DNA from: Mobula birostris
Lineage: Eukaryota
DNA: 64,000 nt
Reading direction: 5' to 3'
NCBI RefSeq assembly: GCF_030028105.1
Contig: NC_092381.1
Span: 60,600,505 to 60,664,504 of the forward strand
Every line of letters begins with the position of its first letter. Positions within the stretch are counted from its first letter, which is position 1. The notes beneath the pieces are model-generated. The model searched no databases. It saw only the letters and a program-made list of their open reading frames with translations, and had not been told where the DNA came from. Made by a program: the position numbers and the translations under genes. Shown one piece after another: positions 3,045 through 43,785 of the stretch.

Positions 3045-3520
3045 ATCAAAATCGGGTTTATTATTAGTGACATATGTTGTGAAACAATACTTTACAGCTG
3101 CAGTTCAATGCAAAACATAAAAATGACAAGTTACAAAATAAATATACAGTATAAAAACTGAACAATGAGGTAGTATTCATGGATTCATGGACCAGTCAGA
3201 AATCTGATGGCAGAGGGGAAGAAGGAATTCCTAAAATGTTGAGTGTTTGTCTTCAGGATCCTGTGCCTACCTCTTCTCTGATGGTAGTAACAGAAAGAGG
3301 ACCTATCCCAGGTGGTGAGGGTCTTTAATGTTGGATGCTGCCTTCTTGAGGCAATACTTCTTGAAGATGTCCTTATGGAAAGCAAGGCTGAATCTACAAT
3401 CGTCTACAATCTTTTGCAATCCTGTGCATTGGAACCTCCACACCAGGCTGTGATGCAACCAGTAAGACTGCTCGCCACTGTACACCTGTTTGGTGAGATA
3501 GCAAATTTCCTCAAGCTCCA
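3045..3520 (-). mobile_element. Rex1/Babar-like LINE 3' fragment
   Basis: Minus-strand peptides KKAASNIKDPHHLG and TQHFRNSFFPSAIRFL, typical of the C-terminus of this LINE group. Confidence 0.75.
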
Positions 3521-4740
3521 CAGAAAAATGAAGAATAGACCATGTGCTTCATTGATACAGGAAAGAACACTGGAGCAAAAAAGTCACAATGAACCTCTGT
3601 AGACCACTAACTTGGCCACAACTGGATTGTAATGCCCAGCTCTACGTGGCTCACCTCAGGAATGATACAAATTTATTAAAGTTGTAGATGAGATTCTGGA
3701 GATAAAGTATTTCAGTATTTTGAATACACAATAGAAGCTATGGTTGTTGAGGTAGATGAGAATGTGGGGAGACTAAAAATGGGATTAATGTAGGATCAAA
3801 AATGGGTGCATAATGGTCAGTGTGGAATCTTTGGATAGAGTAGTTGTGACAAATCTGACTGGGGAATTTAAAAGTAGTGAAAGGCAGATAAAGAGAATTT
3901 GTTTCCATGGGCAGGGGGATCAACACCTATTACAACAATGACTTTATAAAACAATGGCTCGGTCACGATCAAACTCAAAATTGTAGCAAGCTAGTAATCA
4001 GTAAAAGTGCTCAATGTGACATGAAGAAAATCTTTTTGCCCAACAAGTGGTTCACATCTAGAATGTACTGTGAGGGGTCAAATTGATATAAGATTCAATT
4101 GTTGCATTCAACAATTAGAGAGTGGGACTGATTGGATTACTGACAGAGTTGGCATGGACGGGTAGAAATAAACTCTAATGTCTGTAACAATTCTGTGATT
4201 CTATGCAAAGAAGCTTACCTTGACCGATATTTAACTATAAACTGATGGCATGTTATACAAATGAAAATGTCACCCTAACATACTGCGCAAATCCTCTCCA
4301 AGGCAGCATGTCAACTTAAGAACACAGGCGCAGGGTAATTCACTTAGCCCTTCAATCCTGCCTTCCCATTCAATACAATTATGTCTGATCTGCCTCAGGC
4401 CTCATGTCTCTGTGCTAGTTCTCCGTGGCCCTCATTTCCATGATTTAAAAAAAATATAAGTTTCCCTGTTGCTTCTTGACTTCTATTCAGTCATTGCAAG
4501 TACTGCCTAGAATATTAAAAATGTATCATAAGGATGAAGTTCATTGTTCCGACAGTAGGTGGCAGAATTCAGTCAATTTTATTTTCTTGAAATCTGTCCT
4601 TCCACAAACAAGAACTATCATTCTAAATCAGAGTTAAGGAGGTAGGGTTGGGCTCTTTGCAGATGTTTCATATGAAAATTATCTGCTACACTGAGGTAAA
4701 CACAATGTTTGCACACGGCCTGGATCAGATTGTAAGCGCT

Positions 4741-18372: not shown

Positions 18373-21300
18373 ATGAAGGTGACAACCAGGAATAGTCCGG
18401 TGACAGCGTGGAGAGACAGCGGACAGCCAGGAAAGACTGGCACCGGGGGTGTCAGGATTGGCAGTCCGGGCACCAGCTCAGAAGAGCACCCACCTCTTGA
18501 AGCTTCTAGTTTACATGGAGAAACATACCCTTGGGGTCCTCCAAGAGGGAGGGAGAATGATGGACCCAATCGGACGAATACAGTTAATTACAGGGAATGT
18601 CTACGACCAAGAGCTAGGATAAGAGGCTCTGAGTGTCCAGTGTGTTGGTGTCGGAGAGCGTTTTCCAGCATTAAAGGTTTACGAGTCCACCAAGCAAAGT
18701 TGAAGTTGCTATTCCATCCCAGTGGATGAAGATGAGATTACTTCACCAAGCACAGATGATGTGGTCTTTTCAACCACTGATTCACAAGCCACAGCGATTC
18801 GCTCTGGAGAGTGTCATCATACTCCAGGTCAGACGAGAGATAACCTAAGTCAGGTTTCAGACCACAGTTCCCAGGTAGATTCTTCGCATGATGGCGGTGG
18901 TGAGGAGGTAGAGAAGAAGAGGAAGGTCAAGTGGCCAGCAATGGCAGATGAGAAGGTCTGGCGTGTAGTTGATGAGGTTATCAGTATGATGTTGGAGAAC
19001 ACTCTCAGGGGAACATCAAAGAGAAAGTTGGAAGTGATGGGCGATATGATTTACGACGTTGGAAAGTACAGGTTTGGTTTGGTTGAGTTGAAGAAAACAA
19101 AGCCTACACAGCAACCAAGCAGGCGCCAGAAGGAGATTAGTAGGTTGAGGAGAGAGCTTAGATCGTTGAGACAGAGGTGGATGGTAGCAAGTGAGGGTGA
19201 CAAGCCAGGGCTTGCTGATCTCCCACAGCATTTTCAAATAAAGTTAGCATCACTCCATCGTGCAGAGTCACAATGTAAAAAGAGAAAGAAGAGAGAGAAG
19301 GCAAGAAAGTCGTTCTTTGAGAACCCTCACGAGTTCACAAAGAAACTGTTTGAACGAAGTAAGAGCGGGCAGCTTAACATCTCTCAACAAGAACTTGAGG
19401 ATCACCTGGCAAGCACTTACTCTAACGAACAGCAGGAGGCTCCTTTGCTTGACATTTCAGGGCTTGTGAAGCCTACCAAGCCAGGAGTGAAGTTCGATCA
19501 TCAGAAAGGCAAGGTCAGGCTCAGTGCCAGGACCTAATGGAGTGCCGTATAAGGTGTCCAAGAAGAGTGAACAGCTGAGGAAATACTTGTGGAGATTGTT
19601 AAAGGTGGTGTGGAGACAAGGTGTTGTTCCTTTGTCATGGAATGAGGCTGAAGGAGTATACATCCCGAAGGAAGAGAATTCTTCTACATTGAATCAGTTC
19701 CAACCAATTTCACTCCTGAATGTCGAGGGGAAGATTATGTTTGGCATTCTGGCAGAAAGAATATCTTCATTTGTGATTGAGAATGGATTAGTAAATACAT
19801 CTGTGCAGAAGGCAGGAATACCAGGCTTCCCAGGTTGCCTTGAACATTCTAGTATGATATGGCATACCATCCAGGAGTCAAAAAGGTTGAGAAGAAATCT
19901 GGGGTGTAGTTTGGCTTGGTCTGGCAAATGCATATGGTTCTGTTCCCCATGTCCTGATTGAGTTTGCGATGGAATTCCTATGGATTCCTGCTAAGGTGAG
20001 GAAATTTGTTATTCAGTACTACAACGATTTCCAGATGAGGTTTTCCACTCAGTAGTTTACAACTAGGTGGCAGAGCTTGGATGTTGGAATCCCAATGGGA
20101 TGTGCAATTTCACCCATCCTTTTTGTGTTAGCCATGGAGGATATTGTGAGGGCTGCAGAATCAGTGGGACCAGGTGTCGCACTTGATGGCAGAGAGGAGT
20201 TACCACCAATACGAGTGTTCATGGATGATCTTACCCTTTTGGGTCCCAGCACGGAGGCAGTGGAAAATGTACTATCTAGGCTCGAGGAGCTAATGGATTG
20301 GGGAAGAATGAAGTTCAAGACCAAGAAGTCAAGGAGCCTTGTTCTTAGGAGAGGAAAACTGGTTGACTTTCATTTCACCCTTTGTGGAGAGGAGATTCCA
20401 TCCATTCAGGACCAACCAGTTTAGAGCCTCGGGCGATGGTACACAGAGGAGCTGAGAGACACCGAGAGGGTTAAAGAGACAGGAGGACAGATCAGCAGAG
20501 CTCTGATGTCTGTTGACAAGTGTGGCTTGCCCGGCAAGTTGAAGTTGTGGTGCTTGCAGTACGGACTGACGCCACAGATAATGTGGCCACTAACTGTCTA
20601 CAAAGTGGCAATGTCCCATGTTGAGGCAATGGAACGGAAGATCAGCAAGTATGTGAAGAAGTGGCTTGGAGTACAGAGCAGCCTCACCAACGTTGCAATC
20701 CACAGTAGCCAGACAAAGCTTACCATCCCAGTGCAATCCCTTGTTGAGGAGGTCAAAGTAGCCAAGGTAAGATCATTCTTGATGCTTCGAGACTCAAAAG
20801 ACCCTGTCATCAAGAACACCCGGCCGGATGTGAGATCAGGCAGGAAGTGATCAGCTCATGTAGCAGTTGATGAGGCAGAGTCTAGATTGAAGCACAAGGA
20901 GGCGGATGGGGCTATCCAGCTAGGCCACCAGGGACTTGGATGGACAACCCACAAGTGGTGGTCATCTTCTATAGGTAAGGAGCGCCGTGAGCTTGTAACA
21001 CAAGAAATACGAGAGGTAGAAGAGGAGAAGAGGTTAACTAAAACAGCTGGCCTGGCCAAACAAGGGGCTTGGACCCGGTGGGAAAGTGTTGAACAATGAC
21101 ACCTATCTTGGAATGTTCTGTGGCAGATGGAACTGCTCCGCATTTCTTTTTTATGCAGAGCAGCGTACGATCTGCTCCCAACACCTGCCAACCTCAGCAC
21201 CTGGTATGAAGATAAGACAGACAGGTGTGCTGCTTGTGGCGAGAAGGGAACACTTCAACATATCTTGAGTGCATGCGGAGTCAATCTTTCCAGCGGCATG

Positions 21301-21884
21301 TACACTGGGAGACATAACAATGTTCTCAAAGTTGTAACAGAAGCGGTGGAGCAGAGAGTACTGCAGCACAACTTATCTCATGCCCCATGCTGCACAGAAC
21401 ATCGCATATCATTTGTGAAAGAAGGTTCCAAGTCAAGGGTGTACAGCGCAGGCTCACGATCAAGCATACTTTCTTCAGCCAATGATTGGTGTGTCAAGGC
21501 TGACCTGGACAGGAAAGGCAATTTCCCGGAGCAATAGCTTTCACTACATTGCGTCCAGATATAATCATATGGTCTGACACCAGTAGGGAAGCGGTTATTG
21601 GTGAACTCACAGTCCCCTGGGAAGACAAAATCGATGAAACCCATGAGCGCAAGTTAACCAAGTATGCAGAATTAAGATCAGAGTGCAGAGACAGAGGTTG
21701 GAAGGTCTCATGCTATCCATTCAAAGTAGGCTGCCATGGGTTTATTGCGTTCACTCTCCAGAAGTGGCTGCATGACCTTGGCTTCACTAGAAGAGAGATC
21801 AAGTCAACCAGCAGGGCTGTAGCTGAGGCAGCAGAGAAAGGGTCAGTGTGGGTGTGGACCAAGTATGTCCAGAGGGGCAGATAG
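18373..21884 (+). pseudogene. Disrupted RT-RLE polyprotein of the Hero-like element
   Basis: N-terminal CPVCWC...GLRVHQAK Zn finger; RT motifs PGPNGVPY, FQPISLLNVEGK, SVQKAGIPGFPGCLEH, GIPMGCAISPILF, FMDD, KFKTKKS; CAACGEKGTLQHILSAC (CCHC); RHNNVL; RPDIIIWSD...GELTVPWED...RKLTKYAEL (RLE). Split by several stops and frameshifts and an apparent deletion near 19500. Confidence 0.92.
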
Positions 21885-22161
21885 TCAGACAGTGTATACA
21901 TACCTTGCAAACCCTTCAGTAGTTGCATAGACACCTGAAGAGTAGACTATCTGTTGGATGGAAGTGACCAATAACTCTGATAGAGGCATATGCCAAGTTT
22001 TTAAGCTTACTAGTGGGAGGTGGTGCTTTAGCACTGCTGGCCCACCACCTCGAGGGAGTCTTGATCATAGGCGGGCCGAAACTCCTGAAGACAGGTGGCA
22101 GATCAACTGATGATCCCACTGGTGATAGCACAGGACAGTTAACATCTTAGTCCACGTGTAT
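18378..22161 (+). mobile_element. Near-full-length R2-group non-LTR retrotransposon with restriction-like endonuclease (Hero-like clade)
   Basis: Single ancestral ORF with Zn finger, RT, CCHC and PD-(D/E)xK RLE domains; structured 5' and 3' UTRs; abrupt change in composition versus flanks; no poly(A) and no unambiguous TSD. Confidence 0.9.
22007..22125 (+). ncRNA. Predicted non-circularly permuted hammerhead ribozyme with kink-turn, in the Hero-like 3' UTR
   Basis: CTGATGA 22107-22113, GAAA 22078-22081 and GTC 22058-22060. Stem I 22061-66/22101-06; stem II 22039-43/22073-77; stem III 22054-59/22081-86. K-turn plus helix 22045-50/22093-98; closing helix 22007-18/22114-25; hairpin 22019-38. 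Confidence 0.8.
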
Positions 22162-23134
22162 TTTGTAGCTGAACAAAAAATGCCATCATTAAATAAGTAG
22201 TTCTACTTTGTAATATTTGGAAATATGTGGGTGGAACTTTTATACTGCTTTCTCTTTCCACTGTGGATTTTAATGTGTTGATATAAATATGTATTGGAAA
22301 ATCCGAATCATGTATATTCATTTTCTTGCAAGATGAACAGACAACACACCATGAATACATTCAAAGCCAATCTGTCAGTGGAAAGCACAAAATATAAGCC
22401 AGTAATAAAATGATACAATTGCACTTTGCTAAATTAAATGCATGTTAAATGCAATGGATTTGATAAAGACACTGAGCACACCTATATTAAAAAGCAAAAC
22501 AAAACAGCAGATGCAGTAAATCTTAATTTGAAATAGAAAATGTTGGCAATACTCAACAGGCCAGGAAATATTTGTGTTTTGCTTTTCACAAAAACTGCCT
22601 GGCTTGTTCAGCAATTTCTGTTTATATCGGAACACAACTAAACTTAGTTATATTAGCACTAAATACTAAATATCCAAATTAATAGGAAGACTGACTCTAA
22701 CAACGCAATACCAATAATGTACACTAGCTTATAATATCCTCTACATTGTTCATCCTTAACTTGCTTGAATATTATCACTATTCATGATGTAACTCCGATT
22801 ATATTTTGCCCAGTTATTCAGAAATCCCAATGATTTTGCAGATTGGATGGTTCCTGCTCTCCTCTGCACAGACCGGAGTCTGGGCTTTCAATGCTCTCCT
22901 CAACACCTCAGATTCCAGCTCCTCCCACTCCCTTCACACCTATGAAGGTTCTGTTTCCACTTCTTCAGTTAAACTTATCAGTTTTGCTGGGAAACTCATT
23001 ATACTGCATAATATTCAAAATAAAAATGAATTTAAAGTATATTAGGATATTAATAGGAAAATATCTAATACTTAAGAAACTCTGCAGGTCTGGCATTACC
23101 AAAGCCTCAAGCTTGTGAGATTAGCTTTCTCTGT

Positions 23135-42161: not shown

Positions 42162-43785
42162 CAGTGCCTATAAAAAATATTCACCCTCTTGGAAGTTTTC
42201 TTGTTTTATCGTTAAACAACACTGAATCACAGTGGATTTAATTTGACTTTTTTTGACACTGATCAACAGAAAAAGACTCTTTCATCTCAAATTGAAAACA
42301 GATCTCTACAAAGTGATCTAAATTAATTACAAATATAAAACATACAATAATTGATTGGATAAGTAGTCACCTGCTTTAATATGACACACCAAATCATCAC
42401 TGATACAGGCAATTGGTTTTATAAGTCACATAATTAGTTAAATGGAGATCTGTGTGCAGGCAAGGTGTTTCAATTGATTACAGTAAATATACACAGGTAT
42501 CTGGAAGAGCCAACTGCTGGCGAGTCTGTATCCTGTTAAAATCTACACCATGAAGAGAAAAGAACACTCCAAGCAATTTCGCAACAAGGTACTTGAAAAG
42601 CACAAGTGAAAAGATGGATACAAGAAAATTTCCAAGTCACTGAATATCCTTTGGAGTACAGTTAAGTCAATCATCAAGAAATGGAAAGAAAATGGCACAG
42701 CTGTAAATCTGCCTAGAGCAGGCCATCCTCAAAAAGTGAGTAACCGTGCAAGAAGGGGACTAGTGAGTGAGGCCACCAAGAGACCTGTGACAAATCCAGA
42801 GGAGTTACAAGCTTTGGTGACCAAGGTGGGAGAGACTGCACAAGCAACAACTGTTGCCTGGGTGCTTCACCAGTCACAGCTTTATGGGAGAATGGCAAAG
42901 AGAAAGCCACTGTTGAAAAAAAAACTCTCATGAAATCTCAGCTAGGGTTTGCCAGAAGGCATGTGGGAGACTCTGAAGTCAGCTGGAAGAAGGTTCCATG
43001 GTCTGATAAAACCAAAATTAAGCCTTTTGGCCATCAGACTAAATGCTATGTTTGGCGTAAGCCAAAGACCGCATCATCGTCAAAAACACACCATCCCAAT
43101 TATGAAGCATGGTGGTGGATGCATTATCCTGAGGGGGTGCTTTACTGCAGCAGGCCCTGAAAGGCTTGTGAAGGTAGAGGGTAAAATGAATGCAGCAAGA
43201 TACAGGGAAATCCCGGAGGAAAACCTGACACAGTCTGCAAGAGAACTGCGCCTTGAGGGAAGATTTGTCTTCCAGCAAGACAATGACCCCAAGCGTAAAG
43301 CCAAAGTTACACAGGAATGGCTTAAGAGCAATGAAGTTAATGTCCTAGAGTGGCCAAGTCAGAGTCCAGACCTCAATCCAATTGAGAATTTGTGGCTGGA
43401 CTTGAAAAGGACTATTCAGTCATGATCTCTATACAATCTGATAGAGCTTGAGCTGTTTCGTAAAGAAGAATGGGTAAAAATTGTAGCATCCAGATGTGCA
43501 AAGCTGATAGAGACCTATCTTCACAGACTCTAGGTTGTAATTGTTGCCAAAGGTACATCTACTAAATACTGACTTGGAGGGGGTGAATACTTACGCAATC
43601 AATTATTTTGTGTTTTACACTTGTAATTAATTTAGCTAACTTTATGGAGATCTGTTTTCACTTTGACACAAGTCTTTTTCTGTTGCTCAGTGTCAAAAAA
43701 GCCAAATAAAATCCACTGTGATTCAATGTTGTAAAACAATAAAACATGAAAACTTCCAGGGGGGGAATACTTTTTATAGGCACTG
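42162..43785 (+). mobile_element. Full-length Tc1-like DNA transposon (IR/DR type, ~210-bp TIRs)
   Basis: Ends CAGTGCCTATAAAAA...TTTTTATAGGCACTG; TA on the left, TT on the right (mutated TA); long TIRs with inner direct repeats. Confidence 0.95.
42550..43572 (+). pseudogene. DD34E Tc1 transposase pseudogene
   Basis: MKRKEHSKQ...GYKKISK paired-like domain; WSDKTK, FQQDNDPK, SPDLNPIENLW with 34 residues between the second D and E; ends KGTSTKY*; premature stops and frameshifts. Confidence 0.93.

Follow-up and report, generated by a model that had tools for sequence, protein, structure and literature searches.

The hammerhead ribozymes closest in layout to the motif described here are those treated by Eckert et al. 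(2023; PMC10085705), in which three blocks (S, G and C) are assumed to be unbreakable and can be placed in six possible orders. According to that paper, types SGC and CSG were found only in metatranscriptomes and metagenomes and not in genomes of known organisms, and the non-circular types lie outside known genomes except for one weak bacterial GCS case. Type SGC, consisting of HRIMA-1 and its variants, is described there with a pseudoknotted core, a short linker between stems I and II, and an extra helix that joins the free ends of these two stems, all of which are shared, along with the S-G-C order, by the motif reported below.

Among mobile elements, hammerheads occur in Penelope-like elements and retrozymes, for which several reports (PMC4209133, PMC11167929, bioRxiv 10.64898/2026.07.22.740005) describe a ribozyme in a terminal repeat, partial-tandem insertions, an internal start of reverse transcription and a proposed circular template. 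Their ribozymes are type I or type III hammerheads, either minimal or canonical, and Penelope encodes a GIY-YIG endonuclease and a reverse transcriptase (RT) that is telomerase-like, unlike the Hero element studied here, which has an RT of the R2 group and a C-terminal restriction-like endonuclease. The replication cycle considered below is the one that Cervera and de la Pena (PMC4209133) proposed for Penelope elements, and the RNA required by a Penelope element likewise reaches 3' of the start site (PMC11167929). Self-cleaving RNA is also a feature of the non-LTR retrotransposons R2 and L1Tc, to which reviews assign HDV-like ribozymes (PMC6765202, PMC13708176, PMC13580325); that ribozyme is of another class and is located at the 5' end, where it sets the 5' end of a linear template (PMC6765202, PMC13708176), whereas the predicted Hero ribozyme is in the 3' UTR and coincides with no insertion end. 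The HERO clade itself (HEROTn, HERO-1_BF; PMC7650587 supplement) resembles the present element in its RT, its single ORF and its dispersed insertion. Searches of open-licence PubMed Central and bioRxiv brought up no account of a ribozyme, of head-to-tail junctions or of a circular template in HERO elements, nor any report of a k-turn hammerhead in a retrotransposon; subscription papers, Repbase Reports and bioRxiv supplements fall outside this scope and may hold an earlier note of the tandem structure.

The host element and its relatives

Within the window, that is, the whole 64-kb stretch of Mobula birostris DNA that was analysed, a copy of a Hero-clade RLE non-LTR retrotransposon occupies positions 18380..22170 of the forward strand. 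This copy is 41 nt shorter than one full unit and its ORF is broken by several stops and frameshifts; with one ribozyme and a broken ORF it is considered a dead end. The single ORF of the element contains the RT catalytic motif FMDDLT (20218..20235), a CCHC zinc knuckle (21226..21276), for which the sister copy L025 gave a zf-RVT match under the Pfam curated cut-off, and, towards the C-terminus, the motif RPD..ELTVPWE..KY (21552..21665), which we take to be the core of the restriction-like endonuclease (RLE). The stop codon is at 21882-84 and the ribozyme motif starts 122 nt downstream, in agreement with the initial annotation, which had placed it in the 3' UTR of a Hero-like RLE retrotransposon.

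At the level of protein sequence the RT groups with HERO elements: it is close to the HEROTn and HERO-1_BF rows of the PMC7650587 supplement, including at FMDDLT, and compares poorly with the adjacent R4-5_BX row, the assignment being a comparison of these rows by eye. The element shares its protein architecture with R2, and weak R2 matches were obtained in the PDB (E 0.013 and 0.021). A protein atlas search returned no clade name for the element protein, HERO sequences were not found in the supplements of PMC4640811, and neither of the Penelope-like hallmarks, the GIY-YIG endonuclease and the telomerase-like RT, is seen in the element. In the 4.0 Gb genome a first look gave 1,791 candidates for the element's 3' region (family 1), and there were 14,004 for a second Hero family (family 2), whose protein is about 40% identical to that of the window element and 90-94% identical to a named Mobula hypostoma protein. 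Elsewhere in the window there is a DDE_3 transposase fragment at 42946-43425 (Pfam E 5.8e-12), and Pfam gave no match in five other long open frames.

More distant relatives were drawn from metagenome contigs, as the best 80 of 350 with protein identities of 36-58%; viral contigs contained no relatives of the element. A descriptor applied to sequence within 450 nt of the ORF found the motif intact in 54 of these 80 loci, with no match in 442 kb of control sequence (ORF, 53.6 kb; reverse strand, 35.3 kb; shuffled sequence, 353 kb). Three more loci, with long 3' UTRs (L056, L069, L088), came from a covariance model applied to 28 loci and the window. The resulting tally is 57 loci with an intact motif, five with core changes, one partial, nine on contigs that are too short and eight without the motif. 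In a quick protein tree (82 rows; short search, no bootstrap) the motif is found on either side of the deepest split.

Two of the eight loci without the motif, L114 and L119, belong to one family that has the tail-to-head junction discussed below; the descriptor did not recover the motif there, and neither Rfam nor the covariance model nor folding (z -1.2) revealed a ribozyme. Other hairpins are present in L119 and at L114:2690-2830, and this family may be a deletion derivative or may have replaced its ribozyme. The motif is also absent from six further loci with enough or uncertain downstream sequence (L077, L080, L117, L118, L123, L125). In L050:2180-2298 and L057:2138-2248 U replaces C3 with all stems intact, possibly as a natural core variant. 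Long 3' UTRs are seen in L056, L069, L077, L080 and L088; the ribozyme, where found, is 420-780 nt past the ORF match, and TAATCC/GGATTA words are repeated in several of these UTRs.

Architecture and covariation of the motif

Every hammerhead element that the initial annotation had specified is present exactly where it was placed: C3-A9 is CTGATGA at 22107-13, G12-A15.1 is GAAA at 22078-81, and GTC is at 22058-60. Read from its 5' side, the motif opens with one strand of a closing helix, P0 (22007..22018, pairing with 22114-22125), which is followed by the hairpin P1 (22019..22038), the displaced stem II strand starting with G10.1 (22039..22043, pairing with 22073-22077), and the 5' strand, CCACCT, of a linking helix (22045..22050, pairing with 22093-22098). 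The non-bulged strand of the k-turn (22051..22053; 3n C, 2n G, 1n A) leads into block S (22054..22066), with its stem III strand, U16.1, C17, the predicted cut at 22060/22061 and its stem I strand, and block G (22073..22086) then supplies a stem II strand, G12-A13-A14-A15.1 and a stem III strand. Beyond these are the bulged strand of the k-turn (22087..22092; bulge GAA, then G, A, C), the 3' strand of the linking helix, AGGTGG (22093..22098), and a truncated block C (22101..22113), in which C3-A9 (CUGAUGA) comes after a stem I strand but lacks a stem II strand behind it, the 3' strand of P0 (22114..22125) following immediately after A9. In the window copy stem I has six of six Watson-Crick pairs, stem II five of five, and stem III five plus one G.U; P0 has 12 pairs, two of them G.U, and P1 eight pairs, three of them G.U. 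Of 57 other copies, 56 have C at position 22011, which makes P0 tighter in the family than in this copy. The linking helix, which corresponds to the extra stem I-II helix of type SGC, is new relative to the initial annotation, which had also named a k-turn only in its title.

When the window motif was folded without pseudoknots, P0, P1 and stem II were the only helices to appear. When the core and stems I, II and III were combined in a descriptor, the only match on either strand of the window was the motif itself, and a covariance model of 40 sequences, the window copy included, also gave this single match. Rfam had no match in the window at its gathering threshold and, at an E-value threshold, only chance-level matches in 15 related loci.

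Fifty-one loci could be parsed (the window copy, 49 metagenome loci and one locus of family 2). The parsing demanded only GAA, CUGAnGA and pairing, so that the invariance of CUGAnGA and GAA among the matches is by construction. The positions unconstrained by the search behave as in a hammerhead: A15.1 and U16.1 are each present in 51 of 51, position 17 is C in 19, U in 18, A in 14 and G in none, the 10.1-11.1 pair is G-C in 43 and G.U in 6, and N7 takes all four bases. The lack of G at position 17, where C, U and A are allowed, and the freedom of N7 between fixed neighbours are a signature of hammerhead chemistry. The U17 triplet, present in about a third of the parsed loci, is a slower cleavage triplet.

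Pairing was counted in 40 loci, after removal of six near-duplicates and five misparsed or variant loci from the 51. In an alignment built from sequence only, stems II, III and I and the linking helix are 94, 88, 100 and 83.5% paired, respectively, with double changes at five of the six pairs of the linking helix; taken together, 90.1% of the cells in these four helices are paired with 211 double changes, a pairing total reached by none of 500 shuffles, and slid controls are 28-51% paired. By anchored counts, in registers chosen by the parser, each pair of P0 is formed in 34-39 of the 40 loci and each pair of P1 in 35-40. Stems I, II and III thus hold the core register and covary across homologous Hero 3' UTRs, the outcome on which the initial annotation had staked its structural reading, and with the pattern at position 17 this strongly supports a non-circularly permuted hammerhead. 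Judged on these sequence patterns, it is very probable that the RNA cleaves.

The fold departs from the three-block scheme in that A9 is not covalently joined to the G10.1 strand of stem II. P0 begins directly after A9, P1 ends directly before G10.1, and P0 and P1 abut; P0, P1, stem II and the core form a four-way junction with zero linkers, which takes the place of the A9-G10.1 bond and whose helices presumably stack. The junction is supported by natural variants: L047-L049 have G behind A9, with the crossover shifted by one pair into stem II so that one pair is restored, and in a second group (L055, L058, L079, L089, L120) the crossover is free to move over as many as two pairs. These eight loci may represent intermediates between type SGC and the Hero motif.

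K-turns consist of a 3-nt bulge and then tandem G.A and A.G pairs between two helices. Such a pattern, located at 22051-53/22087-92 in the window, connects stem III to the linking helix with a 3-nt bulge in 31 of 51 loci, or a bulge of 2-4 nt in 33, against 4.1 expected, and is absent in 18; the k-turn of the initial annotation is thereby borne out, the kinked fold and any binding of an L7Ae-family protein being putative.

As to whether this is one of the published permutations, which the initial annotation could not tell, the block order is indeed that of type SGC, but block C is split, contrary to the assumption made in PMC10085705. The Hero motif further differs from type SGC in having the G10.1 strand 5' of block S, a four-way junction in place of a bond, a k-turn between stem III and the extra helix, and a genomic, high-copy setting inside a retrotransposon; the words 'kink', 'k-turn' and 'four-way' do not occur in the supplement text of PMC10085705. 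Since its block C is interrupted, the motif works like type SGC without being a member, and a split block C is without tested precedent. A hammerhead architecture is thereby added beyond the six permutations thought possible, and a non-circular permutation is placed in animal genomes, at high copy number and with dozens of natural covarying examples. Descriptors that keep CUGAnGA joined to stem II cannot detect it. The k-turn also offers an answer to a geometric puzzle raised by Eckert et al., namely how stem III reaches the stem I-II helix.

Insertion ends and tail-to-head junctions

When copies were collected with a short 3' query, the 3' ends of 40 of 40 fell within -1 to +4 of one site, 19 of them at +2, and none of the 40 ended in poly(A). 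In the window this fixed end, with a TGTAT motif, is at 22157..22170 and presumably marks the start of reverse transcription. One of the 40 copies continues from the tail into the head of the element, and many copies have an invariant 41-nt spacer ahead of their 5' region, with the 3' UTR upstream of it. The exact tail-to-head junction of family 1 gave 26 matches (control 0), and in 27 readings of this junction there were substitutions in six and no change of length. The junction of family 2 was predicted and then found with 117 matches (control 2), using a third pattern after earlier ones had given three unrelated matches and none, and one spacer is present in nearly all of the 100 matches listed. 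Among the parsed loci 13 of 51 show a tail-to-head join, although assembled repeats are weaker evidence. It follows from the 41-nt spacer junction that the unit closes on itself, at 3,791 + 41 nt in family 1.

Between the end of the ribozyme and the start site are 45 nt, so that a complete 3' ribozyme is kept in every long insertion and insertions about 200 nt longer than the window copy have two. Some insertions are longer than one unit and thus carry two ribozymes one unit apart; in closed units the distance from the cut to the 5' region is 151 nt. Among 46 copies with a 5' region, 25 run past the predicted cut (11 exceeding the stretch that was fetched, and four with a common flank counting as one event) and 21 end before it, with scattered 5' ends of which the nearest to the cut are at -30 and +14. 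Of the 40 copies from the 3' query, nine show their 5' end, and those closest to the cut lie at -8 and +10. No 5' end coincides with the predicted cut in these two overlapping sets (46 and 40 copies), and no gap occurs at the cut in 30 aligned copies, counts that cover a small share of the genomic copies. A common 5' boundary and flank are seen in L158, L159, L160 and L164 (G000 C38, 14.6-16.4 Mb), probably through segmental duplication. Target-site duplications were clear in one case among 26 insertions.

Eight insertions with both repeats (1,691 nt) allowed the repeats to be compared. Three variants absent from background copies were common to both repeats of one insertion, against 0.18 expected (P ~0.001), a test that depends on these three variants; the divergence of repeats within insertions, 4.2%, is close to the 4.6% between insertions.

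Four tandem hairpin repeats of about 21 nt with a conserved purine-rich loop start 7 nt past the start site. Three of them (GAC..CCAG-GAAAGA-CTGG type) are at 18380..18440 in the window, downstream of the start site in the closed unit, and their stems covary in 13 sequences (window 18380-18440, L071:3433-3572 and 11 other loci); another conserved block is found upstream of the ORF. The hairpin repeats may be a candidate protein-binding or translation element and, as they lie past the start site, would be on the template only if it were circular or tandem.

A proposed replication cycle and its alternatives

Partial-tandem insertions, a ribozyme within the repeat and a fixed internal start are thus all found in Hero elements, and the best reading of these sequence patterns is that the insertions look copied from circular RNA. 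Cutting, ligating, priming internally and rolling would be the simplest account, because the catalytic positions are selected and yet the templates are continuous at the scissile bond and at the junction. A transcript through a two-ribozyme copy would be cut at both NUH sites, releasing a monomer of exactly one unit whose ends are a 5'-OH and a 2',3'-cyclic phosphate. The four-way junction would keep A9 beside G10.1, and the k-turn would bend stem III onto the linking helix between stems I and II, as covariation suggests; stems I and III could then hold the ends side by side for an RtcB-type ligase of the host, or the ribozyme itself, to seal. From its fixed start inside the unit, some 110 nt beyond the cut and just upstream of the conserved hairpins, the element protein would start target-primed reverse transcription, copying backwards through the sealed cut to a random stop and sometimes for more than one lap, by which a two-ribozyme copy would be regenerated; here the site and the pattern of insertions are observed. 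That the motif is an active four-block hammerhead, ancestral to most Hero-clade elements, and enables replication via circular RNA is the view we hold to be probable, if only moderately so. The fuller proposition, that as autonomous retrotransposons of the R2 group Hero elements have a genome of circular RNA, in which a hitherto undescribed four-block hammerhead makes the circle and target-primed reverse transcription rolls from an internal start, has in our estimation a little better than an even chance; the hammerhead, with its four-way junction and k-turn, could then be switched on by a host L7Ae-family protein. Against a circle are L114 and L119, which keep the junction without a recognisable ribozyme, the six further loci that lack the motif, and the five loci with core changes. 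The proposal of the initial annotation that cleavage forms the 3' end of the element RNA is not borne out by the insertions, which place the start of reverse transcription about 110 nt beyond the cut, in a unit whose tail continues into its head. Its qualification, that the RNA must be uncleaved or re-ligated or the enzyme must jump a nick, was right; re-ligation into a circle fits best.

Two alternatives retain an active ribozyme. In one, monomers are cut and stay linear while the helices hold their ends and the RT jumps the nick, and the fixed start, the fixed junction and the longer-than-unit insertions would likewise be explained. The R2 enzyme is reportedly able to carry out continuous synthesis on non-continuous templates. 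Nick jumping should, however, leave stalls or small indels at the cut, where neither the 5' ends of the 46 and 40 copies nor the 30 aligned copies show any, and we regard this route as distinctly unlikely. In the other, the ribozyme serves the mRNA, the 5' ribozyme of a longer-than-unit copy helping to release the mRNA or to have it translated, while uncut read-through RNA is the template. The cut 151 nt upstream of the 5' region and the retention of the junction without the motif in L114/L119 are in favour, as are statements in PMC6765202, that R2 and L1Tc RNA is processed by 5' ribozymes, and in PMC13725137, that translation can be promoted by ribozymes. Copying from linear masters, on the other hand, could do no more than shorten the 5' repeat and should yield 5' boundaries that recur together with transduced flanks, whereas the only repeated boundary with a common flank is that of the four copies on one contig that are probably a segmental duplication; the private variants common to both repeats also point to one unit copied twice. 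A role confined to the mRNA thus appears unlikely.

Were the fold a non-catalytic, hammerhead-derived scaffold bound by the element protein, like the structured R2 3' UTR, the lack of any insertion end at the cut, the broken block C, the 3' UTR position and the core changes in some loci would be in keeping. But the exclusion of G at position 17, where C, U and A occur, and the free N7 are unexpected of a binding site across proteins with 36-58% identity, and a scaffold seems quite improbable. Least credible is a chance match or a different fold. The window alone permits a 9-bp helix (22017-25/22043-51) and holds a second CUGAnGA at 22085-91, which overlaps the k-turn strand. Over the 40 loci that helix is 51.6% paired and a canonical stem II after A9, whose first pair is possible in five of 40, 49.5%, compared with 90.1% for the proposed helices, and the descriptor controls gave no match; on this covariation evidence a chance match or other fold can be taken as already refuted.

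If the circular reading holds, a circular template and internal priming are suggested across a whole clade of the R2 group, a cycle so far proposed only for Penelope and retrozymes, which is also of relevance to R2-type gene-insertion tools, whose templates are linear and exonuclease-sensitive.

Some further structures were seen among the insertions and transcripts. Four distinct internal deletions, in L032, L037, L038 and L041, join element positions ~690-820 to ~3165-3460 and may reflect template jumps across long-range pairing; the deletion junction of L041, sought as a case of one deletion in both laps, is unique in the genome. In four RNA runs the depth climbs near the 3' end, in assembled contigs that show neither ends nor levels. 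In contigs of three runs the final ~90 nt of the element are attached to pyrimidine-rich sequence of unrelated origin (L033:1371-1461), a hint of a SINE-like family whose members would take over the Hero tail but not the ribozyme.
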